64,000 nucleotides of DNA, taken from Amphiscolops sp. MND2022 (Eukaryota). The stretch lies in contig OZ076409.1 in assembly GCA_964187785.1 (NCBI GenBank), positions 30,816,001 through 30,880,000 of the forward strand, written 5' to 3'. The notes beneath the pieces were generated by a model that did no database searches, was not told where the DNA came from, and was given only the letters and a program-made list of their open reading frames with translations. Shown piece by piece: positions 8,002-59,599 of this stretch; the first letter of the stretch is position 1, and the number at the start of each line of letters is the position of its first letter. A program made the position numbers and the translations under genes.

Positions 8002-10358
8002 TGTCGCGATCCGCTCTCCGTCGCTGTTTTGCATGTTGCTGCTGTATTCCTGGACTACCCAAATCACTTGGACATGGACACAGCAAGTACTATTAAACTA
8101 AACTAATTGAAATTGAATAACTTTACTTACAGTACAGTTAAGTGTATGGCGAACGATTTTTCCGAACAATAAGTTTGGAAGTACACGTTACGAAATATTC
8201 TTAGGGAATAGTTTAACCTAGTTAAAACTTTCGGCTCAGTGACTCTACGTGTGATTATTTTACTTCCGGTTACGTCTTCTGAAATTTCATACTGATCTAA
8301 ATAACAAAACATGAACAAAGTTTTAAAGGGAAATCATTTCTTCTTTGGCAACGTGGAAAGAAACATTGGGAATGATATCTAATCCGTAATTCCAACGGAA
8401 ATCAAACAATCTAAAATGAAAAGAACATACAAAATAGTATAGTGGAGTGTTTTCCGGTGTCAAAAACAGTTGTTAGAATTCACTTAAATCACAGCCAAGT
8501 AATTTAAGCAAAAAATTACAACGTTAGGGCTGCCTCACTCAACTAAGCCAGTAACTGGTGTTTCTATCTTTACGGACCAATAGCGTCGTCCCTTGGCCAA
8601 GATATTTGAGCTCAGTCCAATAATAACGTCGCCTTTGCGGCGCCGCTCAGTTGAGAGAAAGAGGATGAACGCCTACGCCCTCCACTGTATCTCAGCCAGC
8701 CTTCGTTCAGCTATATCTAATCTTAATACGTACGGAGCGCTTACGGAGCGATTTGTAAAATTGTAAAGCTACACCTAATCTTATTACGTACGGAGCGCTT
8801 ACGGAGCAAATTGTAAAATTGTAAGGCTATATCTAGTCTTAATACGTACGGAGCGTTTACGGTGCGAATTGTAAAATGATGAATATGAAAAGAAGCTCGG
8901 TACTAATTCTAAAAATGATTTTACAGGAAAACAACGTACTTTGGGAACATGATTCCTACATATTAAAAAACTGTTTTGTTAAGAGAAGGTTAAAGAGGTA
9001 CTGGAATAATACCTTCCTTGCAGTTTGTACTACAATCCAAATCAAACAATTACGTCTACCTTGCGTTGCGAATAATATTTTCCTAATGAGTGAACTCAAG
9101 ACCTCTTGTAGTAATCATAAATTACAATTTAATGTTAAAAACAGGATGCAACGTAGTTAGTACATTGAAAAATGTTGTTTTTTTTATACTGAACCACCTC
9201 TGTTAATTCTTGTGTTGAAAGAGTGTTCCTCAAGGTGTTTTCTCACTAATCTCTGTATTGATGAAGTGCGTAGTTTATATGTAAAATATTGCTTGCTGTT
9301 TGATATATAGCAATTTTTGTTGGCCGAAAGGCTTCCGTTAATTTGGAATTTGTTTTATTTATAACAATCATGTACCATGCATTTAGTTTAATCAGAATAT
9401 GTAATGCGTTTATTAATAACCAGTGTTCGTTGTTTCAGCATCATTTGTTCCCTTTTTTCAATGTTTGAACACCTTAACTTTCAAAATTCCTTGTTGCGTC
9501 CTAATCACGTCAGCATTTTTGAGTGTCATACTTTCGTCTGAAGATTTGAATCCCCAGTTCGAATTCTGACTAATTGATCACGCCGGCGTGCTTTCGTCGA
9601 TGAGAATGTCAGCAAGACTTTTATTTTGCCGCAATTTTGAGTTGAAACAGGAAATGGAATTGGTTGAACAAAATTGATTTCAACAGGAATTACGGAATGA
9701 TGACGCGGCTAGGAATTTCGATACCTGATTTTATGGTACGGGACTGAAATAATTTGAATCATTAGGGATTTTTTGTGAACACACTCGATATTTAGGATAC
9801 CTAGGAATTTTCAGGTGAGGAACAAATGATGCTAAGAAAGTATATATATGTTGAACTAACATGTAAATTCGGTTAAAAGTTGTTGACCACTTTATACTAA
9901 ATTGTTCCGTTAACCTCACGAAAACCTTTTCTTCGAAGAATTCACTCTTTGCCGAAGATTTCAACCTTTAACTAATATAAAATGACAACTAGAAGCCAGA
10001 AAACAAAGACAGTCACTGAGCTAGTTTCCGGGGAATTTGAAACTCCGACAGCAGAAAATAATCAACCTGAGAATCTAGTTGCATGTCCTAGTAAATTTCC
10101 TAGAAAACAGCCTTAAAACTTGGAGGAAATAAAATAAAATAAAATAAGAACGAAAATAATGTCTGATTTGGCAAAAATATTAGCTGAAAACCAAAAGGAA
10201 ATGATGAAACTTGTAGCACCGATAATTTAAAAATCATCTGCTCATCAAAATGCTCAAGACTCTGACTCTGAAACCAAAAACATCTCTGTTGCTCAAACGT
10301 CAACCCCTGTGAAAGCAAATACGACTGTACCTAAAACTCCCAATAAATAGTCGTAACA
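8002..10358 (+). mobile_element. Probable solo LTR (~2.36 kb) with decayed gag-like ORF start at its 3' end
   Basis: TG...CA termini (TGTCGC...CGTAACA); flanks CAATT/CACTT (5-bp TSD, 1 mismatch). Broken ORF MTTRSQKTK...LAENQKEMMKLVAP from 9982 runs to the end of the element. Confidence 0.55.
8709..8877 (+). repeat. 58-bp tandem repeat, ~3 copies, inside the solo LTR
   Basis: Units start at 8709, 8767 and 8825: AGCTATATCTAATCTTAATACGTACGGAGCGCTTACGGAGCGATTTGTAAAATTGTAA. Confidence 0.9.
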
Positions 10359-25600: not shown

Positions 25601-28600
25601 GGAAGCTGTCAGGTTCGTCTTGCATTTCGATGTTATAAACTTCTCGCTATGATAATAAGTAGTATGAGGAATCTCGATCCTGGCCAGTCAGGCAGTTAAA
25701 ACAGTATACTTTCAAGGCAAATCATTAAAAATTAGCCTTTTTGCAACTAAAAAATTAACAGAAAACTTGAAGTTCGTCTAATCATTGAAAATAAGCATAT
25801 TTCCAATAAATATCATTGAAAATCAGCCATTTTTACTACTAAAAAGTAACAAAAATCATTGAACAAGTTTTTTAAATGAAAAATTTCGTTATGAAGGAAA
25901 TTCACTAACTTCTATGGTAGTAATATTATAAAACAATATCAACCACCAAACTTATTTTTCAAAGCCATACCTTCTGCATTCAAATGGTAACACAAGTGTT
26001 CAACAAAATAAACACCACACAAATTTTTAACGCAAAATAATAATTGTTCGTCCACGAATATACCAGAGGGAATAAATTGGAATATTGGCTAAAAACTCTT
26101 TGAAAAATTTTAGTGTAGCATTCAAGTGGAACATGTGCTGAAGCCGAGGAAGGGGGCTGATCTGAAACTAATAATTTCATTTCGTCCCCATTTTCGGCCT
26201 CATCATCTTAATACATGGTAAAAGATAATTTGCTTAATATCTTAACGGGATATCTGAGGGTTTTTTATGCAATCAACCCAGCAATCAGCATCTGCCAAAA
26301 CAGGTGGTTTCTCAATTTTCTCGGAACTGAGTCATCCTACTTAACCGACTCAGGAGATCAAAGTTATAGAATACATCCATACAAACATTTTTATTTCAAC
26401 CATTTTTTCAGTACTCGAACCCAATCTGGAATAGGTATAAAAACAGGCGTGAAAATAGGGTTTTCTTCATTTTTCACCAGACTCGTTGACTCGAAAAGTC
26501 AAGAGACCAAAATTGTAGATACCCAGAATATGAACAACTTTTGACTCTTAACAATTTTTCATACCTTGAACCTGGTGAAATGTAAAATATATCTTCGCCA
26601 ATTTTGAATGATCTCCGCCAAATATATCTCCGAAAATTTTTTATGTTGAATTCAATAATAAATAAATGGAGTGTTGTAGAATTTGAATATATTTGCTTTT
26701 ATCAGATAAAAGTTCTCATCTCAGTTCGAATGACCATAAAAAATAACCAAAGAAAAAAGAGTATTTTGTGGTAAATATATATCTGATCAAACAAGATATT
26801 TCTGAAGTTAATTTCACATCCTAAAAACTCAACAAAGTAACCAGCTGAATCAACAAATAAACCAGCTGAATCAACAGAGAAACCAACAAAGTAACCTGCG
26901 ACATGGCCAAGACGTAGAAATAATTGTGAATGAAAAAAACATACATTAAATTGAAAATAAAACCGATTGATAGTCTCAAAGAATATGTTGATAGTAGTAG
27001 TAAAGGAGGGGGGGGGGGTTTATGAACGTTTTTGGCTCCCAAGCGAAAATTTTCTAAGATAGATTTCTTATGCACGTTTTGGGCTCCCAACCGAAATTAT
27101 TCTAAGATAGATTTCGTGTGCACGTTTTGGGCTCCCAACTCGAAAACTTTCAAAGTCATAAAGCTCAAAGGTCAAACTGATTCTTTATTCAAAATGTGTG
27201 CCGTATGTCAAGCATTATTTACATTGCAAACCGATGAAGCTTCTTACTGCAATAAAAGTGAATAATCTTAGCATTAATGAAAATATGAAGCAGTCCAACC
27301 TTTTCTCTGCTGAACATGAGGCCTGAGGCCATTAAGAAGTAAAAGTAAAGAGATTTTGATAAACAGACAAAGTGAAGCCATGTTCGTTCCGGAAAACTGA
27401 AAAACACAGCGACAGCAGTATCTATGTACTTAGACTCTGGAAATTCCATGGAAAACTCCCATAAAAGGCACCTATGACACCTCCTATCATGAAATTGATG
27501 CAATTGTCCAGATAACGGTTGGCGAAAACGCCATTATTAAAGTATCCTCATTACAAATCAGAAGCGAACTCAGAAGAAAAATCAGAAAATTTGACTACTG
27601 TATTTCGCGAAATACCATTCAATTATTGGCTTGTTCTGTTTGCCACTGATGAAATTCGAGAATCTCAAAAAGAAGGTAATTCCGAGATGCCAGTCAGTGT
27701 TGCAGAGATGCTCGAAACACTAACAAACTCGAATGGTTGTCAGTTCATTTACAGGAAGCACAAAAACGGAGAGAATAGCGATGGTGAACTTAACGATTTC
27801 TGCCAATCCATGCCTTCAAACCACTCTCACATACTGCTCTACATTCCCTATTTTTCTGGAGCCGAGAAGTTGATAAAACAGTCTGTTTCTCAAACGCTAT
27901 CCAATGTACAAAATGCCAAAGTCAAACTACTAACCGTCTCTTACCCAGAAAACTTTATGAAAACGGAAATCTCAATGTTCCACGATGAATCGCTAATTAT
28001 CAGAGGCGAAAGGATGCAGAAGCTAATCAAAGTGAAAACAACTGAGACTTTGGGTTGTAAGTTTGTATCTTCATGGGAATTTGAGAAACACAATTCCCTA
28101 GGAAACTGTCCTGAGAGTGAGAAGGCACTTTACGTTTTCCAGAAACTTTTGCAGCTCGAGAAAAGTGACGCACCTTTCAAAGACACAATAATTTCCTACA
28201 TCGATCTTCTACAACGGGGAATGGGGCGACTTTTCCTTACGGAGCACAGCCGAACGTTGGACATTGACTTGGGTGTTTCAAATACTCAATGCACATGCTA
28301 CGAGTGTCTCTATCAGCCATTACATGAAACACAAGACGACCAAAGCACAAACTCTGAATTTTCTCTCTTCAATGAAGACACTATAATTAATACTTCATTT
28401 TTGTAAAAACTTTTCTAGAAATCAGTTGGATCCAATACATTTCTTTTCACGAAGTGAAAATGTTTTCAGCGCGAGAAATTTGTGAGAACTTTAACGCCGT
28501 AAATTATTTGTTCCCAAGAAACACTACAACTAAAAACGCATTTCTAGCAGTGTGCCGTTATCTGGATGAAAATGTTGATTTGAGAAAAGTCAATGCTTTA

Positions 28601-31600
28601 GCCCAGTCTGGAGGCAAAATAGGACCAGGAGACAGCAAACTTGACGACTACTTTAACTTTTCAAAGATATTGAGATTGCATGCAATTTTTCATGATGCTC
28701 ATGGCTACATGAGAAGTTTTGAGAACGTAGGACCTGGTTACGTTTATACCGTTACAAAAACTCAATCCTTTCGGAATAATATGCTTCTAGGACATGTCTC
28801 CGGAATAGCTTATTGGACGTTTGTCAAACTTTTCCATCGCGAACATTTCGACGCATTCCCTTTCTGAATTTTCATTTCTTACCTTGAACCTCTTTGAGTT
28901 CGGTCGCAACAGAACTAGAGCGAAAACGTTGCATTCGAAACACTAACGATTATGAGCACAATCGATACGTGTCGCAGCAGTGGATATTGTAGCGAGTTGA
29001 CGTTGAACGAAAACCCCCGAGATCAAGAAGATCAACTTGACTACGCTGATTTGTCTGGTCCAAATCTTGAAAGGATAATTTTCGATAACACTGATCAAGA
29101 AAGACCTCCCTTCAACTTCAATTGCTGTGACTCACGCGTGGAGAGATCGTTACTCCTAGTTTTCTTTCATTATGCTATCATACTCGCAGTAATATCTTTT
29201 TGTATAATTTTTCTGTCGCTTTGTGATTCAGAGAGCAAATTTGCATCAGGCGTCTTGGCACTTTTATCAGCTTGCGTTGGCCACGTTTTACCCGGTCCAA
29301 AACGATGAACAAAAGAATCAGCACTAACCCGCATTGCTTCATTTCAGTCGTCGGGCCTGCTGGCTGTGGCAAGACACGCTTAATTGGAAGAATGATTTCA
29401 AACCAAGAGAAAATTTTCCGACCGTCTTTCGATAGAATAATCTATTTTTACAAACACGATCAAGATTCCTACGAAAAACTTAGATTTGAGTGTTCGACTA
29501 AAGCTGTCGATCTTGACCTTGTTCAAGGTTTGGAGTGGAATGCTGTCGAGCGAAGCGAGGCTTTGAAGCAGAGAACTCTTGTTGTTATCGACGACTTGTA
29601 TGATGAAGCTGCTCAAACTAAAGAGTTTCTAGACCTAGTTATTGCTGGACGTCACAAAAACGTACATCTAATGGTTCTGCGACATAACCTTTTTCAACAA
29701 TGTAAAAACTCGAAGACGATCGACCTGAATGTCACTCAGATGATTCTGTTCAACAGCCCGCGAGATTTAGAGCAAATTGGAATCTTGGGTCGTCAACTAG
29801 GAGAGCGATCAACTTTAATGAAGGCATATAAAAGGGCTACGCAGGAACCATTCGGTCATTTGATGATTGATCTGGATGTTCGAAGCAATATAAACTTGAG
29901 ATATTGCTCTCATTGCTCTGCAGACGTACCAACTCATTTTTATTGTGCTACAGATCAACTTTTTGTTTCACTAAACGATGAATTCACAAAATTATTATAC
30001 TCTTGATTTATACCAAAAGTTTTCACCTACCCTGAAAAAGTTTTTTATTCTCCACTGTTCTGATGAGTTAATTAAATTTTTTTGTGATTGCATTTTCAAT
30101 GTAGTGAAGGGAAAAGTGAAACTTGAAAACAACATTCAACGAAAAATGGCTGTGCTTTCACGCGAAAAAACGAACATTGAAACAATTTGCACCAAGAGAC
30201 GCGTCTCTTTGAAACGAAAACGTCAAGTGTTAGGCTCTGACAGAGGAATGCGTTTGCTGAAACTAGTCATTCCGTCAGTTCTGAATCATTTGAAAAATTG
30301 CCATGACAGCAAGCAGTAGCTTACGCGATCTTATTTTAATCACTCACGAGGAGTATATATCCTTGAAGCAACAAGTCAAAAAGCCAGATGCTCGCGAAAA
30401 ACAAAAGCAACATATACTTTCAAATCTGGGTCAAGACACAGACTACCTTCACCGACAAGAAAAAGACATGGATGTTTCTGAACCCTCAAAACAGTCATCA
30501 GAGGACGCTCTAGTAGCCCAGTTGAATTTAAATTCAAGGTATCCCACAGAAAAAGATATCAGCAAAAGCAGTGAGAAAGTGAATGAAGCACGCCAAAAAC
30601 CGTCCGATCTAGTTTTATCGAATTTACTGGAATCTGGCGTCACGGGTGGTAAAGTTGAGAGGTCGAGGCAAATTTTGAAAAAGATTGAAGATTGTGAGCG
30701 AACCACATTAGATGATACCAATCATACCATAATTTTGGATCAACAGGACACTGGAATCAGTGTAGTAGAGTTTCTGTCAGCACTGCAGGTTAATACCAAA
30801 CAGCTACCGAAAAAGTTTTTAACTTTGGTTGAAGTTCTCAGACTTCCTCAATTTTTACTAGCAAACACTTATGCTAGGCATACTAGCAGTCAAAATCAAC
30901 ATCATATTAGACTTGCTGCCGGTGCCTCGCCTTCCAAGAAACTGAAGCTTGATAGCGAAACCGTACCTAATCAGTGGCTTACAAATTTCTGAAAATGGGA
31001 AACAAGAAGTGGGTTTGTGGATCATGCAAAAAAAGTCTCGGCAAAGGTTCCAAGAAAACTCCATCGCTTTGGTGCCACGTTTGCGGATGGATTCACTTCA
31101 AGTGCAGCGGGCTAACAGACAGCAAAGAATATCACGACAATTTTTTGTGTTCACATTGTCGAGAAAGCCGAGTCTTGCTCGATGATGAAAAGGACGGAGA
31201 CTATGCAGCTGCGTTTCCAAAAATTCATGATCACTACACGAATCCTGGAAATACATCAGCTTTTGGGAGTAGACGAAGCTTGATTAAAGCATCAAAGTTC
31301 CGGCCACAAGATGTAGACCGTTATTTAAACTCGAGCGAAACTTACACAAAATTCAAATTACCCCGAAAACGTTTTCCACGGTTGAAGGTTATTAGCTATA
31401 GACTGAACGAAATTTGGTCAATAGACTTGGCAGACATGCAAAAACTGGCAAACACTAATGCCGGCATCAGATACCTATTCGTCGCTGTTGACGTCCTGAG
31501 TCGTTACTTATGGGTTGAACCCATCAAGGTGAAAACGGCCCATGCGTGTAGGGAAGCTTTGAAAAAAATATTCGCCAAGAATGACAAGTCACGAAATCCC

Positions 31601-34600
31601 AAAATTTGTCGTGAAACACACCAACCAGAAAAAATTTGGGTCGACAAGGGTCGTGAATTCTCGGGCGAATTTGCCACTTTTTGCAGTCAACGTGGAATTG
31701 AGATTTATTCCACCAAAAGCGAGACAAAATCTGCTTTAGCCGAAAGAAACATCAGATCTTTGAAGTCGTTAATTTTCAAATACATGCACGAACATGACCA
31801 AAGTAGATATTTTGACAAACTTGATCAATTTGTGGCAATCATTAACAACCGAGTGAACCGTATGACAAAGTTGGCACCGTCTTCGGTTTCACAAAAGGAC
31901 GTCAACTATTTAGTTTCTCTCTGTCACACCAACGCCCAAAAGAAGCCAAAATTCAGAATTGGCCAACAAGTTCGCATTAGGCGCAAGATTGACACTTTTC
32001 ATCGAGGTTACAAAATACAGTTCACGGAAGAATTGTTTAAAATTGCGGCAATACCAACCAACAACCCTCCAACTTATATTGTCAAAGACTGCGACGGCGA
32101 AATTATACAAGGAAAATTTTACGAACCTGAACTCGTGCGATTCGCTCCAAATTGACTGTGTCAACGATGGACGGACTGTCAGCAAGTGTTGAGCATTCAA
32201 GTTGCAACCAAGAATTCACCATGAATCTCATTTCCAATGCTTCTATGGATACTTTTCCCGAAAACACATTGTCCAGTTTTACGACTCTTTTACCGACACC
32301 AATTCATCTTTCCGGCGAGTGGCAGGTGGCTCTACTGGAAATTGCTTGGCCCAATATTATCCAGAATGTGACTGTGGGAGAATTCACAGTATACAAACGA
32401 AACATCCAGTCGCCAGTCGAGAAGCGACCACGCAAGCACAACCGACCCGGTGCCATTTCAATGGCGATTCCTGCAGCATTCGAGCGTCAATCTCCTGCTT
32501 CGACTCTCCCGTTTTACACAGCTCCTGTAAAGCACCGCCTAAAACCGGGATGTTATACATCGGTCGATTCAATTTTAGCATCAATCACAAAAATTGCCAT
32601 GGGAGAAGAACAAATTGGAAGAAAACGAATCTCATCATCCCCTGACAATGTCTTATCACTTTTGTCATGGAAAGTTGACAATGTAACGAGAAAACTACAT
32701 GTTAAATTTTGCGGAAATCACAAACAATATGGGTTGAGAATTTTCACCGAGTCCAATGATTTGCGAAACATTTTGGGCACGAATGTAATCATTGATTGTG
32801 GTGAGTCACAAAAAGAAGCAGTGGAAGAGATCGATACAGAATCTGCATCAAACACAATTGTCAAGCATGTTGGAAAATGGCCAGTTGACTTGAATGCAGG
32901 CAGCCATACCATGTTTTTGTATTGCGACCTCGTGCAAAACCAAACATTGGGCGATAAGCAGACGGCACTCTTGCGATCGATTCCCGTTAAAAGTCTAGCT
33001 TTGGTGCAGACGTTGGGAGAGATGAATCACAAAAGTTTCAGCAATCTGCAGTGGAAACGCGTCATTAAATCGCAATTTCAGTCAATCAACGTCACGCTCG
33101 CCAATGAAATGGGTCAAAAAATTCCCTTCTTGAGTTGCGGTCGCACCAATGTGACTTTGGCTTTTAGACCAACACCTCGACACTGACCAGACATCGTTCA
33201 TTCTGAAATTTGTGAAAAGTACAGTCGCTCAAATTGACCAATTTAATTTCATTGGCTCCGGAATGGATGCCCATTACGATTCACAAATTAAAGCCAATAC
33301 TCACACAACATTCAGTGGACCAGCCAGACAGATGGGATCTGGGGGTGGCATTGGAGCTTTTGCTGTTCGAATGGGTCGTGTAGCCATTCCACTAGTTAGA
33401 AAGTACGTCTTACCTGTAGCAAAACAAGTCGGCAAAAACTTGATAGAAAGCGCCGTTCCGGAAATTGGACAGATTTTGTCAGGCAAGAAAAAGCCCAGCC
33501 GTAAGCTGTTGACTAATGTCGCCAAAAGGGCTGCCATTGAAACTGTAAAGACAAACTTGCCGAGCGGTGTTGCCCTTCGGCCGGGCGGCGGCGTCGGCGA
33601 GCGGAAACCCGGACCGCAGCGGTCGGCGGCGAAGGCAAAGAACGGAGTTACACGAAATGTCAAACAATCATCAGGCAATAGAAAGCGAAGTAATAGTCTC
33701 TCAAGCATTTCAAAAAAAGCGCGCGCCAAGAGAAGTCGGTCCGACATTTTGTCTGAAATTCAATTTTCCCAATAGACAAAAATTCAGAGAATGGCAGCAT
33801 CAGTTAACAACCTCTTTGTGGGAAACTCGACGGAAATTGCAAAACCAGTGACACACAGCGCTCTAGACTATTTCGAAAAGCCTAAAGTAATGATCAATTA
33901 CGAAGGGGCCTACGATCAAGAAGTATTCCCCCATGTTGGTTGTCGCGGACCACAGTTGGATTTTTTTGTTGCCGCTGAAGCAAAAAATTTGATTGACTTG
34001 AATCGCATTGTTCTCAGTGTTGAGGTGGCAATCTATCATGAGGATGGAAAGACAAAGGCAAAACCAGGTGACTTTGATGCAGTTTTTTCCAACAATACCC
34101 TCCACACGCTCTTTTCGCATGCAGAATTGTATCTCAATGGGAAATTGATTTCTCACAGCAACAATTGTTACTTACATTCCGCATTTGTGGAAACTGAATT
34201 AACCACCGACACTGATAGTAAAGCTTCATGGGCCAAATGTCAAGGCTACAATTATTTAGCCAAGTCCAGTGAGAAAGATCAAATGTTCAACAAGCTTGCA
34301 GCTGATTTTGCTCAACTGAAAGAATCCAAAATGCAGTTATGCGGTGCTCTCCACATTGATTTTCTGGATTGCGAAAAACTTTTACTGCCCAATGTCACCC
34401 TACATATTCGTCTTTACCGCTCGCCAAATAACACAATCATCCATCTCAAAGGCACCGATGATGAAGCAAAAGCGCACGACGGAAAACTTTTGGCCATTGT
34501 CGAGAAGGCTTCGCTTTTTGTGAGGAAGGTTGTAGTGACTGACAGTGTTAAATTGTCGATAGAAAGAGAACTGGTGAAAAGCGATGCAATGTATCCGTAC

Positions 34601-36240
34601 ATTGAGAGTTTGAACAAAAGTTTCATTATTCAAGCCGGGCAAAATTGTTTCATAAAGGAAAATGTTTTTGGCACCGAGCCAATTCGACGATTAACTTTGT
34701 GCATGGTTAAAAACTCCTTGTTCCGAAGTACGCCACTAAACGAGTCTCCTTTCTCATACCAAAAGTTCAACTTGCAAAGAGTGGAAATCCAAAGGGGCAA
34801 TGGTGTTCCTTTAGCTGGGACACCATTGGATACTACAAACAATGTGAGATTGTACTACAATACGATTACCGCTCTTGGATTCACCCAAAAGAGTAACGGC
34901 ATCAGCCTTGAGGATTATACAGACAACCATTTTTTTCTCGTGTTCGACTTAACATCAACTGAAGAAGCTAGCAAAACTTTCACACTTTTCCCCGAGCTAA
35001 CGGGATCCAGTTTGACTCTAAAGCTGTACTTTGAGAAAGCACTCGATGATGCTATTGAACTTTTTTTGATTGGAGAGCGATTTAGTCAAGTGTTTATTGA
35101 CTCAGCGCGCAACATAAAGAAAAACAGCCCGTTTGATGGATAATTCAACATTACAGCAGATTGTTCTACAGAATCCACATTTGAAACCAAGCTTTGCTGG
35201 TGTTTGGTCTGCAGACAATTTTCCCAAACAGCCAGGATGGACCGAACAACGGATAATTTTGCGGAGAGGATCAAAACATTCATTGTACTATAGACCTCGT
35301 TTGGTTTGGTTCCAAATTGTCAACACATCCCCATTGGGTGCAGTAGGAAAACATTGGCTGCTACTGGGAGCAGTCTCGACACAAAAGAAGAAAAATCTAG
35401 TTTTTGTTTGGGATTGTCTAGGTCAACCCTTGTCACGTTACAAAATTTTCGCTCAGCGTCTGAAGCTGCTGTACGGAAAGACAGGATTCTCGACAATCAA
35501 CCTGACCCTTCAAAACGCCAGCTCAAATCTGTGCGGGCTCTATTGTCTCTTCATGATTGACTACATTGCAAGGAATCCTACAAAAGCACCTAAGGAAATT
35601 GATCCAAAACTCAAACACTTTACAGAAGTTGAAATTATTCGTTTCATGAATGGTCAATATCATACATTGTTTAGATATACTGTAGTGTAAGACATCTACT
35701 TTTTGAATTTAAACGTTATATACCCTCGCCATTTTGCATAAATAGAAGCAGTATTGAGCTATTAGTTTTCATCTCCGCTACTGGAAGAATAATTCACTAG
35801 TTTAAATTCGGCACTTGAGCAAATTTTTCGTCGTTTCTGAGTTGAATAATACTCTCCATTAAATTGAGAACCATCGTCGTCGTCAGTCGACTCTTGTGCC
35901 TCATAATTAATGAATGGACAATCAAAGTGTGCATCGTGCTGCTCATCAGCCAAGTCGTCAGATAGAGTGTCCCAATCAACAACATCTGGTAATTCTTCAT
36001 CATCGTTAGAGCAAGAAGCTGATTGATTGAAGCCAGGATCGGGGGCATCTAAATTAACAATTAGGTTTATATCAATGGTGAATATAAAGTGATCGATACA
36101 TTTGGAATAAAACGGTACCAACTGAAATTTGTCAAGTCAGATTTTAAAGCTTGTTTCAGAGGACTCGCGTAGCTGGAAGCACGCGATGAGCAGCTGCCAT
36201 CGAGAGAGTCGGCATCAGTATCACTGTCAGAAGTGGGGAC

Positions 36241-36278
<38 letters not shown>

Positions 36279-39200
36279 AGCTCACTGATTTATCACAGTC
36301 ACTAGAAGAGTCCAACTCTTCGTCAGAAGCAACATTGACTAAAACCTCACGCTCTCAATACACAAAAAAATTTTTAAAATTAAAAAACGAAAAATACCTT
36401 GATCTGGAACTGGAATGGCATAATGACCATACGCTAGCGACGCAATCCCATCATTCAATATGTAGCGCTTGTCGTCAAAAGCACTCAATGCTATTTTCTC
36501 GACAGAATTAACAACAATTTGGTGATTGACGGACTTCAGTTGAAACATGGTCTTGGTTACTTGTTCTTTCGAGAGGAGGCACTTTTTGAAAAGATCATGA
36601 TGCAACGTCTTTTTAACAGACTTGGCAACGCCCTTTGCACTCTGTTTCTTTCCGCCCACGAAGTCGATGCTGTACAACTTGGATCTGAGACAGACGACTT
36701 CTCTCAGAACTTTGCCTTGGAGCTCATCCGTCATAGTTAAAGGGACTTTTTTGTTTGTTGGGTCATATAGAAAGTGGTCTTTAGGATAATCAGACAAGTC
36801 GAGAAGGTGTTTGAAACCGGCCATGTCTTGATACAAATTTTCTGTTTCGACGCAATAAAGCAGCGAATCCGTGTCTTTGTAGGCCAATTTCAACTTAGCT
36901 GCAGAATAGCGGGGTACCATTTGCTCATAATGGAATTTGTAAAGCGAAAGTTTGGACAAGTCAAGAATTGATGCTCCCACCGGAGTTGGTTTGTCCCATA
37001 GGACACTGCTCGATTTGAACGATACGCTGACCAGATTTTCATTGACGATATTGAATGATTTGAAAGATGGTTTTTGAATCATTGATTCAGCTTGTTGAAC
37101 GTTTCCCACAAAAGCAATTTTACTTCGCTTGCGCAGATTCTCCATTGTTGTTCCGAAACAAGCGTTGCTCATTAGCTTGAAAAAGTTTTTTCAAAGTCAT
37201 TTTCAGCCTGCTTACGCATGATGGTATTTTTTTCAATGTAGACACCCAACCATTTAATTTGATTAAACTCGCACACACGATGCAGTTTTTCCACAACCAA
37301 TCCATGCTTTACATAAAATTTCAAATTTTCGTAGTGACAGACGTAGTTTTTCTTGTCAAAGAGGGTTTCAATCAGTTTAAGGACTTTGTTCGGCTTCAAG
37401 CCAAAAGATTTAGCGTAAGCAGACAGCCATTGAGGCATAATTTGACGTTTCTCGGGTGCCAAAGGCAAGCCATTGTGAGTATCATGAAGTTCTTTTGGAT
37501 ACAGGAGGTCAACTTCGACAAAGAAACCGACATATGCATCAGCGGGAGTATCGAGAATTTGTTGCAATGTTATCGCGGTGTTCCATTTATAATTGCCTAT
37601 GGGCATCATTTTTTGCATTGTGCCCGCATATAGAGACGTGACATCAAAGAACGCTCCAAACGTTGTAGCTTTGCTAGGGTTGTGATGAGGTAGCAAATCG
37701 TTGTTGGCACAGAAATGTCGAATCTCGCCGACACCATTAACTCCACCCCTAATTCCACGTTCGAAAAACAAAAGTTTGTCAATTTCATCCAATAAGCCCA
37801 ACTTCGCATCCGTTGAGATCAGCATCGCGTCCCAACTGAGGTTCGGAGCTGAGTAGAAATGAGCCGGGTCAAGCTTGTACACCTTGAGACAAACCCTTCT
37901 AAATTTTTCAAAAATGTCAGCTAACAGAAAAACATCCGTTTGCAAGTAGAGATCGTGGTAATCTCCCAGATTCTTACAAGCAAAAGCTTCATAGATAGTA
38001 ACAGCTTCATTGTATTGGTCAGGAGTTATATCCACTGTCCCAGTGAGGGTATTTTTCCAATCAATTCCGAGGGGTGGCAACGGTTCATCAAACTTTTGGA
38101 AGCTGTCCAGAAAGCTGTATGGAAAAAAACCTTTTTTGGTCAGTTTTTCGAACACCTGATCAGGTACACCAGAAAAATGTTGACGAAGGAGTGCAAAATC
38201 GTCAGCCTTCAATGTCTTAGCCAATGATTCCAAACTTTGTGACATGAATTGCAAGCTGTCAAGGAATCGCAATGAATGAAACAGCCTGACAATTCTGTTC
38301 TTTTTGTCAGTGTAGCTTCCCACCGGCATAGATAAGTTAATTGAAGTAAAAGTCTCATCAGTTCTGGCGATTGCTGAAAGTTTTTCACCCTTCTCCAATT
38401 TCAAATTTTTCAACATATGATGCGAATCGTAGCGCGAAAAATTGTGGAAGAATACGGGCAGAAAATTTGTTGTTCTTGCTTGCAGGTTACACTTGGAGTG
38501 GGCCACGCCAAAGACTTTTCCAGACAAATGGCAATGGTGAATCACCCGTGTGGAAACTTCAGCTTCTTTACCGCAGATGCAACACTCGGCAAAATGCACA
38601 TTTAGGATCCTTTCGCGCTCAGCTTTTGGGATTTTGAGCCAACGGAACTTTTGCTTTTCTGAGTAACACCAGACAGACCATTGTCGTAAAGTGTTCAGGA
38701 GCTTCGATATAGAGTTTCGACCACGATAAAAGCACTCTTTCACAACTGCTCCAGCTAAAATTACCAATTGTAGTTGAAATATGGTTGATTAATTGTTGGA
38801 AAATATAAATGAAAACACTAACCCTTGTTATCGACCAGAACAGCACCGTAACTAGCAGGAAACTGTCGCTCAATCTCCCGCGTTTTCGTCGAGAGGCTGT
38901 GGGTTTCAGTTTGACAAACATTCAATGCCTCCAAATCAGCGTACACAACAAATGGACACTGCTGTGTTTTCTGCCAATTCACAAACTGGAGTAATCGGTC
39001 GTCTTTCGGCATTAGGATTTCCAAAGGATCGTTGGATTCACAAAAAGTGGAATGCCTGGCCATATTTTGTTTCAAAACTGGTTGGAAACAATTCCTGCAG
39101 AATCGACTTTTCGGACCAGTTGACCTTTTCCGCGGAGAGCGAGAAAGATGATGAATAAGGTTTGAAAAGTTTTTGATGAGACAATAGTGACTCCGTTTCC

Positions 39201-42200
39201 CTTCAACCAATCGCAAAAGATTAACTTTTCTTCTGTGACTTTTGTTTTTGCTACTGTAGATATTGATCAATTTTCTCCCATCTAACTGATAGACATTGAT
39301 TGAGCATCGGTTTCTAACTTCAAAGGATCGAATACCAGAGAGTGGCATGGGCATTTGTTTTGCATTAAAATGTAGCTTATGCACATTTTCCAAATGTGTT
39401 TTGGGTCGAAAGGCACGACCGACGAAAGAGAACAGCGCCGCGGCAACACAATACAGGAAGCAGAAATTGTCCTTTTTATTGACTATATTCAAAAGGCTTC
39501 TTTTCAATTTCTGCAGAATAGGGGGCGTTTTGATGTAGGAACCAGCAACCACAGTAGCACATTTTGCAGTCTTGATTTCAAATCTCTCCATTTTTTCCAC
39601 AACCCAGCCTGAGCCACCAGTAGCAAACACGTTGAGTTGGCTCATCAGTTGATCCAAGTGCTCCAAGAACTCCTCTTCAGTAAATTCCAGCGATAGCTTG
39701 GCCATGCTTGAATTGAAAAAAGCTTCGGTCGAATCGTCAACTAAAGGTTTGCGTAAACGCACGCTCATTGAAAACCCCATCTTCATGTTGCCTTCAACCT
39801 CCAAAATCGAGTTGACAAATCCCATAATTTTGTCTTTCAATGAAATCAAGCAATTGAAAGGTTCAATAAACAACGACTCCCCAAGTTTCAATCGATGAAT
39901 TTGGAAATGTGATTTCAAAGCTTTTGTTGAGAATGCGATAGTTGAAACATTTTCTGGAAGAGAGCGTTTGACGTTTCCAGTGGAATGCAACTCCTTCTCA
40001 TGCGTAGAAAGAGCTGTAGAGCAACCATAAAAACTGGGACATGTAGAACATCGGAATTGGTTTGTCATTTTATGGACGGAGCGTAAATGCCTCAACAAAT
40101 TCTTTGATTGGGTGAAACCTGTAGGACAGTGTTCACAGTGGAATATTTTGGTGCTCTGTTCAATATTTCCATGTTTTGTTTTCATATGATTGCTTAAAGC
40201 TCGCTGGGAAGCCAAAATCTTCCCACAATGTTGGCATGAAAAATTCATTCCAGAGTGAAACCTTTCAAATATTCACGGTGCCATTCCATATCAAGTTGAA
40301 ATTTCTCAAGATAAAAAAGAGCAGAAAACGTACTAGGAAATTCAACTACTTTTTTGAAGGAGAATGGCACCGTGAAGGAAAATTTGAGACAGTTTAGCTT
40401 TTCAATTTTCCGGAACAGTAAGAAATCGTAATTATGGGCTTTTAAGAGCGAAGATTTTCATTCACTTGTGAGCTCTGATTAAACATTCGATTTCTTTCAA
40501 AGTTTGTCCAAACGGTACTTTTCTATTCTATCTCTGTGAGAATGTCATGAAAGGACAGTCAGCAGTCTTCTGTATCAATAAGATTCGAAATCTTTCTAAG
40601 TTAACGTTTCTCTTGGTATAGAAACCATTAAGAAACCTTCATCGCTTTGCAATGTAAACAAAGCTTGACATATGGCACACATTTTGAATAAAGAATCAGT
40701 TTGACCTTTGAGCTTTATGACTTTGAAAGTTTTCGAGTTGGGAGCCCAAAACGTGCACAAGAAATCTATCTTAGAATAATTTCGGTTGGGAGCCCAAAAC
40801 GTGCATAAGAAATCTATCTTAGAAAATTTTCGCTTGGGAGCCAAAAACGTTCATAACCCCCCCCCCCCTCCTTTACTACTGTTGATAATTTGTTAATAAG
40901 AAAATACTTCTGCCGATAAAGGTTTCAATTAAGTATTTAGCTAATTTTTCGAATTTCTTTATTATATAAAATCATAGATTTCACAAATGGTTAAAATCAA
41001 ATTTGAATTACAATCACACGGATCAAAATGTTCATCAGTTGATCATGGAGAACTTAGACGATGAAAATTTAGAACGATCATGTTTTGTACTTCAAATTAT
41101 TAAATATGTTATATTAGAAATATAAAAAGTCAATGATATTCAAGTTTCTTCTTGGGTTGAGTTACCAGTAAATTATAAAAAAAATTAGTCAGTTATAATA
41201 TTAAAAAATGAAGAGCAATTTTGTTTTTGTGGTGTATCTTAGCTCATCTTCACCCGGTTGAAGATCATAAAAGTAGAACTTCAAAATATGCTATGTATTT
41301 GCCTACTTTGTGTGTAGGTGATTTAGAATTCCTTATGAAAGCGAAGATTTACCGAAGTTTGAAAAACTTTATAATTTGAATGTAAATGTCTTTGAATTTG
41401 TCAATTCCTTTTTGTCACCAGTCCATAATAAAAATTTTGAGTAGAACAAATAGACTTATCATTGTATGAAAATCACTATTGTCTAGTAACAAAATTACAG
41501 ACTGATAAATACAGATTCACACACGAAACATGTATTTAGAAGTTGTTTAACAGCATTTAGTTCACAAGCGATCCTAAAAGATCGTATAAAAAGATGTCAG
41601 AAACAACAACCAACCAAATCAGTTTTCGTTGGAAGGATCATCTGACATTTGAAGACTATCACATGAAAATACCAGTACCAATAAGAGTTCATGCAGATTT
41701 TGAATGAATTACCCAACCTCAAGATAACCACAAGGTGCTATTCACACAACATCCGGTTGCTGTTGGTTATTCTACAATATCACCATTCGGAAATCATCAT
41801 TACTCTTATTTTGCAACAGATTGTAAAGAATGGTTTATAGAAAGAATGTTAGAATTAGAAAATTTTGTCGAGCAAGTCCTTCGATACCAATATACCACTG
41901 CAAACAACTCCTCAAGAGGATGTACAATTCCCAGATGCTAAAGTGTGTTGGTTGTGTGGAAATTCATATGAGGAAGATAAAATTCGAGATCATGATCGTC
42001 TAACAGGAAAATACAGAGAAGGAGCTCATAATTTATGCAGTCTCTACTGTTAACAAAAGTTCAAATTTTGTTTCCTGTATTTTTCACAACTGTTCTGGGT
42101 ATGATTGTCTTTTAAATTTGGAGTAACTCTACCGAATCATTCAATCAAAACTATAATTCAACGATAATACCTAAGAATTTAGAAAATTATGTATCAGTCC

Positions 42201-57511: not shown

Positions 57512-58482
57512 GTGGGTAACCGAATGAACCAATCCACTTTGTTCTTGCGAGAATCACTCTCTTCACAAAACTTTTTGCTGTTTTTGGGAATACGAAATGA
57601 AAAACAAGCCGCGAAATGCCAAAGTCGGCGCCCCGCTAGAGTTTCAAAACAGAACAAGTTTCTCAAATACGCAAAGGTCACTTGTTGAAATTTCACCAAT
57701 TTTTTAGTGCCGAAAAATACCCAAAGGCACGAGGCCCGAAAACTTGTTTCCAACTGGAAAAAGCAAAAAACCTATTTTTGAAATTTTTTGATGGAAAAAG
57801 TCCTATAGTGCTAAAACGGGAGAGTAGTTGGGAAAACGGCCGGGTTTGCAACGGGGTAGGATTGTCACCCTACAGCCGGGTTTGCAACGGGGACATGTAG
57901 GAGTAGCTTCTTTTGGTTAGGATTTCATTCGCCGGTTGGAATGAACGGCGAAATTGATTCGGCGCTCGGAAAACGTTTGTTCGGCGGTCAGAATTGTGTC
58001 GGAAAAACCATTCTTCCAGCGCTGTGGAATACTTCGCTGCCCGTTCCTTTCACTTCGATACTCGGGAATGGTTTAGGATTCAACGCTTGAAATTAGTTTT
58101 TTCCCCAAAAAATTTCAAAATCCTATCAAATTACGAAGTTCCTGCAGGAGAAGCGTAGACGTTCTTACTATTCGATTGAATGTCCAAAAGAACTATCCTT
58201 GTCATTTTGGTGCAGGTGAAGTGTAGAGCGGTGGTGGATTAACTGATAATTTCAAGTTTAGAACAAGCTGTACAAAACATTCCCAACTTGGTATCAGCTA
58301 TTGAAACGTAATATTGCAACTATGCTTAGCTTAGAGGAATGTTTTTTAGCCATGTTTGCAAAAGTTCTCGTGTAAATGGAAAGCTCTACTCAACTGAAAT
58401 GCTGGTGCTGGAGTTTTCTTCAATAGCTAATATCTTCCTCCTTTCAAACGTCTTTCTTGGTGAAGGTCTAAACTTTCATGTT

Positions 58483-58964
58483 ATTAGTCGGCGCTTTTAT
58501 TAATAAAAGAGCCCGACTAATACAGTCACTCGTCTTTTTTAAGACAGACTCGTAGCGACGAACGTTAAAATTAACGTTCAACTACTAGTTACAGTTCTAC
58601 TAAAATACTGGCAGCGCATTTAAGATAGTGCAAAGGGTCCCCATTTCAGTTAGTCCATTTTCATCGTAACCTACAAAACCGGCCGAGACTAAAGGGTCCC
58701 CCCTTTTGATTTTTTTTCGGCACTATCCGACTTTTTTTCGAAAATTTAATGTCCCAAAGGGTCCCCCCTTTGAGTTTTTTTTGATATTTTGCAACAGAAT
58801 GCATGTTTATAAATCAAAAGGGTCCCCCTTTTACATTTTTCGGCACTGTGCGACATTTCCCGAAAGATAAAAATTTTCAAAAATTTCAAGTTTTTTTCCA
58901 AAAAAATGTTTTGCGCTTTTTGAGCCTTAGATATAGCGCCGACTTTAGACGTTCTCGTCTTGTT
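58483..58964 (+). mobile_element. Helentron/HINE-like non-autonomous repeat copy
   Basis: 5' TTAGTCGGCGC; 3' GCGCCGACTTTAGACGTTCTCGTCTTGTT (subTIR, hairpin, TT). Confidence 0.6.
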
Positions 58965-59599
58965 CAAACTGCTATCACTTCGTTTCACCTACAAAATAGT
59001 GAAACTGTTAGTACTTATTCTTCCAAGCTTTTTGGTTTCTTCGCTAAAAGGAAGCACTTGCGAATATTTCCAAAATTATGGTTAGTTACGATTTTACTTT
59101 ACAATATTGCGGTTACAAATTACTGTTAAATCGTCGTTTTTTTTAGGAAAGAAGAATTTTATTGGATTTATATATTTTATCAACCCATATTCGCTGGGCA
59201 CTTTTGTTGTTAGTCGCAGTTATCGAAGCATAAATCCCATATTGCGCGTGGATATTCATCGAAGGCTTTTTCGTCAACATAACCCTGTAAGGGAGAGACT
59301 GTGCTCGGAGAATTGAATCGTGGTATGACTAATTTCATTTTTCTATGATAGTCGGCAGACGGAGTGAAAATTGGTTTCAATTGTTCTGACACAGTGACGG
59401 CCCACAGACAGACATTGCCTATCTTAGCCACTTCTGGAAAACATTTTATGTAAAGATCCGAGGTCCCACACCAGAAAATTATTTGAATCCTGAAACAGAT
59501 GGTACACATCTTTTTCGGAAAAGGGAATTGCTATTCCCTTTGAAAAATTGAATTTCTTATGGACCGCCTTGTTTCGAAATTGATTCTTCCAAAATTGTG

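Follow-up and report, generated by a model that had tools for sequence, protein, structure and literature searches.

In adenovirus, a protein-primed viral polymerase depends on host splicing: in the E2B transcripts for the polymerase and the terminal protein, a short upstream exon gives the start. For vertebrate Mavericks, the relevant passages of Barreat and Katzourakis (2021) report that no introns were seen in the genes that intact elements carry (PMC8097293), and for nematode Mavericks the corresponding passages of Widen et al. describe intronless core genes, with introns in captured cargo genes (bioRxiv 10.1101/2022.07.12.499685). Dinoflagellate Maverick-Polinton-like elements contain young, repeated introners that were mostly acquired after integration, according to the passages of Gozashti and Corbett-Detig on these elements (PMC11957031); group I introns are also known in such elements, as stated in an excerpt of another study (PMC12220804). 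Neither splicing of PolB nor an acidic tail is mentioned in the adintovirus passages of Starrett et al. 2021 (PMC8502044) and Buck et al. (bioRxiv 10.1101/2024.03.25.586562). Here we describe a Maverick/Polinton in the genome of Amphiscolops sp. MND2022. Its gene for the protein-primed polymerase (pPolB), at 35762..40248 on the minus strand, very likely has three spliceosomal introns, and their removal would add a C-terminal tail beyond the usual end of the enzyme. The stretch of DNA that we analyzed, which we call the window, is 64,000 nucleotides long (contig OZ076409.1, positions 30,816,001 to 30,880,000), and all coordinates refer to it.

The polymerase gene and its predicted introns

The first exon of pPolB (38823..40248; all parts of the gene are on the minus strand) begins with an ATG at 40248 and encodes C2H2 zinc fingers (PF00096, E 4.7e-6) and the N-terminal domains. 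It is followed by intron 1 (38755..38822; 68 nt, GTTAGT...TTTTAG) and then by exon 2 (36398..38754), which encodes an Endonuclease VII-like insert, the exonuclease, and the polymerase core (PF02945, E 7.9e-6; PF03175, E 1.7e-13). Intron 2 (36339..36397; 59 nt, GTATTT...TTTTAG) lies 8 codons past the GHY motif. Next, the predicted exon 3 (36123..36338) encodes a Ser/Asp-rich linker that includes a poly-Ser repeat. Intron 3 (36049..36122; 74 nt, GTTGGT...CCTAAT...ATTTAG) separates this linker from the predicted exon 4 (35762..36048), which encodes the motifs PDPGF, DWD, and CPFINYEA, a basic cluster, and LVxYS, and ends with the stop codon at 35764-35762. These two tail exons comprise 71 + 94 full codons, or 165 in total. 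A short upstream open reading frame (ORF) at 40255-40300, also on the minus strand, terminates just ahead of the polymerase ATG.

All three introns are in phase 1, and removing each one brings the reading frame before it into line with the open frame that follows. Their GC content is 24-28%, versus ~41% for the coding DNA. At the first site, six GT..YAG pairs in the window could join the frames; we preferred the pair 38822/38755 because it alone yields a gap-free match to uninterrupted relatives. The introns have the features of U2-type introns (GT-AG ends, a pyrimidine-rich 3' end, a restored frame, and a conserved position), and they are very likely spliced out by the host spliceosome. This structure agrees with a first-pass annotation of the window, which had placed three GT-AG introns at these coordinates and a hidden Ser/Asp-rich tail of ~165 residues past GHY, with a stop 71 bp from that of a convergent protease. 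The donor that it considered the least certain, that of intron 3, aligns with GTGAGT, GTAAGT, or GTTAGT donors that other families have at the homologous place. It had missed that the element is a Maverick/Polinton, as well as a frame break within exon 2.

The frame break is at 37172..37190 (minus strand), where the ORFs 38788-37172 and 37190-36339 differ in frame and no intron separates them. None of the 11 other closest copies share the window's length for this stretch, and 8 of 18 more distant copies do. A fourth intron or a programmed frameshift was ruled out, as the ORFs overlap without spare sequence and the length is not shared by the 11 closest copies. Either a mutation or an error in the assembly accounts for the break, and the window copy therefore probably makes no full-length enzyme.

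Splice sites and reading frames in close copies

We compared the window to close copies of the gene (30 loci out of 41-42 matches per search, with the window included). A check of splice sites in sibling copies had been suggested by the first-pass annotation, and the sites are conserved in 27-30 of the 30 loci. Specifically, the GT and AG of intron 1 are present in 30/30 and 29/30 copies, those of intron 2 in 27/30 and 27/30, and those of intron 3 in 29/30 and 29/30. Intron lengths drift across all frames (62-71 nt for intron 1 and 41-64 nt for intron 2). Although tail exon 1 can be as short as 192 nt or as long as 225 nt, its length is a multiple of 3 in 28/30 copies. Among the distinct other lengths of tail exon 1, 9 of 11 keep the frame (p 0.0014); intron 2 does so at 2 of 8 such lengths and intron 3 at 0 of 2. 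Tail exon 2 is in frame in 26/30 copies.

The poly-Ser run of tail exon 1 (36240-36280, minus strand) is an AGC repeat that grows and shrinks in frame among the copies. At two more divergent loci (L106 and L107), a GAT repeat encodes poly-Asp of differing lengths.

The tail exons are under purifying selection, as judged from changes that are common to at least 3 of 18 more distant copies. By this count, the ratios of non-synonymous to synonymous changes in the predicted frames are 0.44 (p 0.018) and 0.33 (p 0.001), which is the synonymous bias that the first-pass annotation had proposed looking for. The four other frames of these exons give ratios of 0.69-1.84, which are not significant, and the catalytic core, as a control, gives 0.04. 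We relied on shared changes instead of pairwise dN/dS (0.54 and 0.29), which counts the same changes repeatedly.

Divergent families in the same genome and the origin of the introns

A protein search of the genome gave 2387 candidates, of which 150 were scored, and we took 20 Maverick loci at ~60-85% identity. These fall into nine lineages in a tree that contains 21 sequences from this genome and 20 of 120 outside proteins. Tail exon 2 was matched by tblastn in 19/20 of these loci. All 19 loci that have the PDPG or IDPG motif also have an AG exactly 5 nt ahead of its first P, as in the window, and all 19 loci that we read have a phase-1 donor after GHY. A solution with two phase-1 introns was found in 17/19 loci; these introns are ~55-85 nt long, with donors such as GTTAGT, GTGAGT, and GTAAGT. 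Over the whole genome, about ten lineages share the conserved splice sites. For the host, whose genome is 1.07 Gb and whose myosin genes are intron-rich, GTAAGT, GTGAGT, or GTTAGT donors are seen in 7 of 15 myosin introns.

In 11 of the 19 readable loci, intron 1 interrupts the same codon in the same phase, with GT and YAG ends, and the intron sequences (62-88 nt) are unrelated. It is absent from the other 8, where the frame runs uninterrupted, without gaps, and with the same number of residues. L108 could not be read by motif, yet GTTAGT...TTTCAG is visible at the site. The carriers of intron 1, including the window, form one clade (support 100/98) that is nested among the non-carriers in this tree, which was rooted at the midpoint only; the intron-1 labels were first assigned by eye, and 19/20 were later confirmed by a sequence check. 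This nesting points to one gain, and intron 1 was likely gained once inside the clade. Introns 2 and 3, we infer, predate it.

Many Maverick families are co-resident in this genome. Near-identical copies form groups that are spread over different contigs, which suggests that Mavericks expanded here several times in the recent past.

Distribution, motifs, and predicted structure of the tail

Outside this genome, we considered 120 listed relatives of the 3299 that were found. Of these 120, 113 have the C-terminal anchor, 12 extend at least 60 residues, and 10 have PDPG in frame. The tail is uninterrupted in P0015, P0017, P0020, P0025, P0028, P0030, and P0052, and the tailed pPolBs P0017 and P0052 are on contigs of several hundred kb. 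It is also fused in frame to pPolB in the RefSeq models P0023 and P0152. Among the relatives listed, P0023 from the acoel Convolutriloba macropyga is the closest named pPolB (65% identical). Database proteins of the close relatives P0001 and P0003-P0005 end in intron read-through. In P0016 and P0019, there is hydrophobic read-through or a stop exactly where intron 3 is expected, which suggests, from these sequences, that intron 3 is more widely shared than intron 2. We infer that pPolB of this clade had the tail ancestrally.

We selected 18 tails by the presence of PDPG. A DWD-like acidic motif is found in 14 of them, FIxxEA in 16, a basic cluster in 15, and LVxYS in 7. The exact sequence KRRK, which the first-pass annotation had likened to a nuclear localization signal (NLS), occurs in just one. 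A resemblance between KRRKIC and the cofactor peptide of the adenovirus protease was rejected, as KRRKIC is not conserved. A text search of the literature for the tail motif FIDDEA gave 0 matches, no relative was confirmed among viral contigs, and the Atlas lead for the tail (SPT6_acidic, at 0.76) is weak.

The AlphaFold model of P0025 has a high confidence (pLDDT) until about residue 516, which lies a few residues beyond GHY; for residues 517-601, the value is below 50. The tail is thus predicted to be disordered. A tail that folds back on the polymerase was not seen in this model, as the pLDDT of the tail is below 50.

Probable expression of the polymerase and a proposed role of the tail

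We think it probable that the three conserved GT-AG interruptions are spliced constitutively by the host to give one main protein, comprising the polymerase core and an acidic, predicted-disordered tail of ~170 residues that may act in nuclear import and docking on a host nuclear protein. The gene would be transcribed by the host's Pol II in the nucleus, and the host spliceosome would remove all three introns to give one main mRNA. Its product would be a complete polymerase whose disordered tail carries conserved islands that act as short linear motifs, and the tail would serve, at less than even odds, both for nuclear import and for docking on a host nuclear factor. As to the individual motifs, we speculate, with more doubt than confidence, that PDPGF, the acidic-DWD motif, FIxxEA, and LVxYS bind host chromatin or transcription factors, and that the basic cluster is an NLS. 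This is by analogy to acidic-hydrophobic short linear motifs, formed by a short helix and an acidic linker, which bind the TND domain and have transcription and chromatin factors as partners, as described in part of PMC9987994.

Alternatively, retention of intron 2 could be a regulated switch, as proposed in the first-pass annotation, with a tail-less enzyme from unspliced transcripts and a tailed enzyme from spliced transcripts at different stages. The replicase of this clade would then be under host splicing control: retention would give the bare enzyme, full splicing would add the docking tail that takes the polymerase to the nucleus and to host chromatin factors, and the host's splicing state would decide where and when the element replicates. 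Intron 2 does sit 6-10 codons past GHY, where the fold ends, in every family that we read, so retention would yield a complete core that resembles most relatives. Also, retention would lead to an early stop in 29/30 close copies and in 17/19 divergent loci, and the intron-2 donor in the window, GTATTT, is unlike the common host donors. However, a phase-1 GTTAGT donor together with AT-rich sequence is enough to produce an early stop, and intron 1 behaves likewise. The read-through of intron 2 is not conserved in length or sequence (6-20 unrelated residues in 29/30 close copies, mostly 8-16 elsewhere, and 93 in one family), and the donor looks weak in the window's family only, while other families have strong GTTAGT or GTGAGT donors. 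Outside relatives bear the tail without the intron. No AATAAA or ATTAAA occurs on the coding strand within intron 2, and if intron 2 were retained while intron 3 was spliced, the stop would lie well upstream of the junction, which is a usual trigger for mRNA decay. The switch did not gain support from these comparisons, and we consider it unlikely, as we do the control of replication by host splicing that would follow from it.

Could the tail exons instead be a separate small gene, or a transcript that starts past GHY and is not joined to the polymerase? Selection on the tail is far weaker than on the core (0.33-0.44 versus 0.04), which would fit, but the outside proteins with uninterrupted tails and both RefSeq models carry the homologous tail as an in-frame part of pPolB, the phase-1 donor past GHY is present in all 19 loci read, and tail exon 1 of the window has no Met. 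This makes a separate gene very improbable. It is harder still to credit that the breaks are decay, assembly errors, or introners inserted after integration. Frame-breaking indels do occur in the copies (relative to ten near-identical copies, 13 of 15 such events are in homopolymer runs, with the window's own break counted once per copy), and introners are known in dinoflagellate Polinton-like elements, as the passages of PMC11957031 describe. But the same positions and phases recur over lineages with only 60-85% protein identity, which largely refutes this explanation. Furthermore, all 15 genome matches to the DNA of intron 1, the only intron searched in this way, are inside Maverick copies, so at the sensitivity of this search intron 1 is not a dispersed introner.

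Several observations weigh against constitutive splicing to a conserved tail. The splicing of pPolB is deduced from the DNA rather than observed. The 15 inferred host introns are all at least 242 nt, by a method that misses short ones, so they offer no example of a host intron of 60-90 nt. Among the close copies, which are kin and hence not independent counts, a stop lies inside tail exon 2 in 5/30, and the frame keeping of this exon by distinct lengths (4 of 8, p 0.26) is not significant. At the divergent loci L098 and L099, the reading frame stays open through the intron-2 region, for 93 residues, which makes intron 2 uncertain there; the two-intron solution was not found in L105 or L109, and L110 is missing a clean motif. 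Most pPolB relatives terminate 1-20 residues past GHY, so the tail is not required for catalysis in general. The tail motifs were found in 0 of 23 usable distant metagenome loci (of 80 fetched, the others had no anchor or less than 450 nt of sequence downstream of it), which makes the tail a mark of one clade. Finally, the tail is not a named domain in the libraries, with no Pfam match and a best Atlas score of 0.78 (below 0.9). On balance, the observation is real, and the support for it is stronger than a first reading from sequence alone could show.

The element that carries the gene

The element is 13,888 bp long (positions 26993-40880) and is bounded by terminal inverted repeats (TIRs) at 26993..27242, which starts AGTAGTAGT, and 40634..40880. 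The TIR arms are 247 nt and 97% complementary. The element's ends are AGTAGT, and AGT-repeat ends are an end motif of Maverick/Polinton elements. In each TIR (26993-27140 and 40737-40880), the AGT end is followed by a G-run, and a ~48-nt repeat occurs internally in 2-3 copies. The sequence GTTGAT flanks the element on both sides (26987..26992 and 40881..40886) as a 6-bp target-site duplication (TSD). With TIRs, a 6-bp TSD, pPolB, an rve integrase, an ATPase, and a cysteine protease, the element is a Maverick/Polinton. The 6-bp TSD is given as a Maverick criterion in a passage of PMC8097293.

The other genes are on the plus strand. These are a packaging ATPase (29227..30006; PF04665 Pox_A32, E 2.3e-6); the rve integrase (30971..32155; PF00665, E 6.2e-11), with an N-terminal Cys/His finger; a candidate minor capsid protein (32131..33186), identified by its usual position only, as Pfam gave no family; a probable major capsid protein (33776..35143); and an adenain-like cysteine protease (35118..35690; PF02902, E 7e-5; PF00770, E 0.005) that is convergent with pPolB. 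A 71-nt spacer (35691..35761) separates the stops of the protease and pPolB. The probable major capsid protein has no Pfam match and an Atlas feature score of 0.98; in the Atlas clusters at this score, 30% of members have PF21738 DJR-like (DJR, double jelly-roll), and this is a feature score without an alignment or fold.

The start of the integrase ORF (30971-31160, plus strand) has a C4HC3 pattern, which we take to be typical of a PHD finger; it has no Pfam match at E 0.01. PF00665 is the only Pfam match on this 394-residue ORF. No C-terminal chromodomain was found on the integrase, so we do not class the element as an adintovirus under the Starrett/Buck definition. In a Pfam scan, the N-terminus of pPolB gave no match to the OTU-like domain of that definition. 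At 28391-28867 (plus strand) is a 158-residue ORF with a GPGD...HD pattern. This pattern resembles that of a parvovirus-type phospholipase A2, and we dropped that reading, as the ORF matched neither Pfam nor the PDB. In the flanking host DNA (2200-25000 and 58400-59000) there is a dispersed, diverged family of 30-300 nt repeats (D1-D11), and a 58-nt unit is tandemly tripled at 8709-8882.

Comparison to known systems

This is a known type of element with new features: introns in a core gene, a conserved domain that has no name, and an intron gain that can be mapped. Because Maverick core genes were taken to be intronless and ORF annotation stops at GHY, the conserved C-terminal module of pPolB stayed hidden. 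That the introns keep their positions in the replicase implies that this gene has long been transcribed in the nucleus and spliced by the host. Intron 1, which some co-resident families have and others do not in a nested pattern, is a clean, mappable case of intron gain in a mobile element. And the motifs in the tail offer a concrete, testable way to look for a host partner in Maverick replication, which is a poorly known process. Our search of the literature gave no account of an animal Maverick pPolB with conserved spliceosomal introns or with an acidic tail; it did not extend to the original Polinton paper, nor to Repbase entries and supplements, which may annotate such introns.

Compared to vertebrate Mavericks, as portrayed in the passages cited above, this element has the same TIRs, 6-bp TSD, and genes (pPolB, integrase, ATPase, protease, and capsid genes) in two convergent modules. 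Their genes are described as free of introns, whereas its pPolB contains three that are conserved, along with a C-terminal tail. Nematode Mavericks, in the passages cited, also have this core gene set and introns inside the element, but those introns are in cargo genes instead of the core replicase. The dinoflagellate elements, as the cited passages describe them, likewise have spliceosomal introns within full-length elements. Unlike their introners, each of the introns that we describe is specific to the gene, conserved in position, and inherited with the element.

Like adintoviruses, this element is animal-associated and has a divergent PolB: pPolB is 47% identical, over the C-terminal 254 residues, to the PolB of an adintovirus from the house spider Parasteatoda (P0064). 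Unlike pPolB, P0064 stops 4 residues past the anchor. The same PDPGF / DWD / FIxxEA tail is found in LOC142335839 and LOC142351740 of Convolutriloba macropyga (P0023 and P0152) and in P0015, P0017, P0020, P0025, P0030, and P0052. In contrast to the gene in the window, the tail of these relatives is in one reading frame, although the RefSeq models P0023 and P0152 may be spliced themselves; these proteins are unnamed or "uncharacterized." Finally, whereas in adenovirus E2B it is a short upstream exon with the start that is spliced on, the introns described here split the body and the C-terminus of pPolB.

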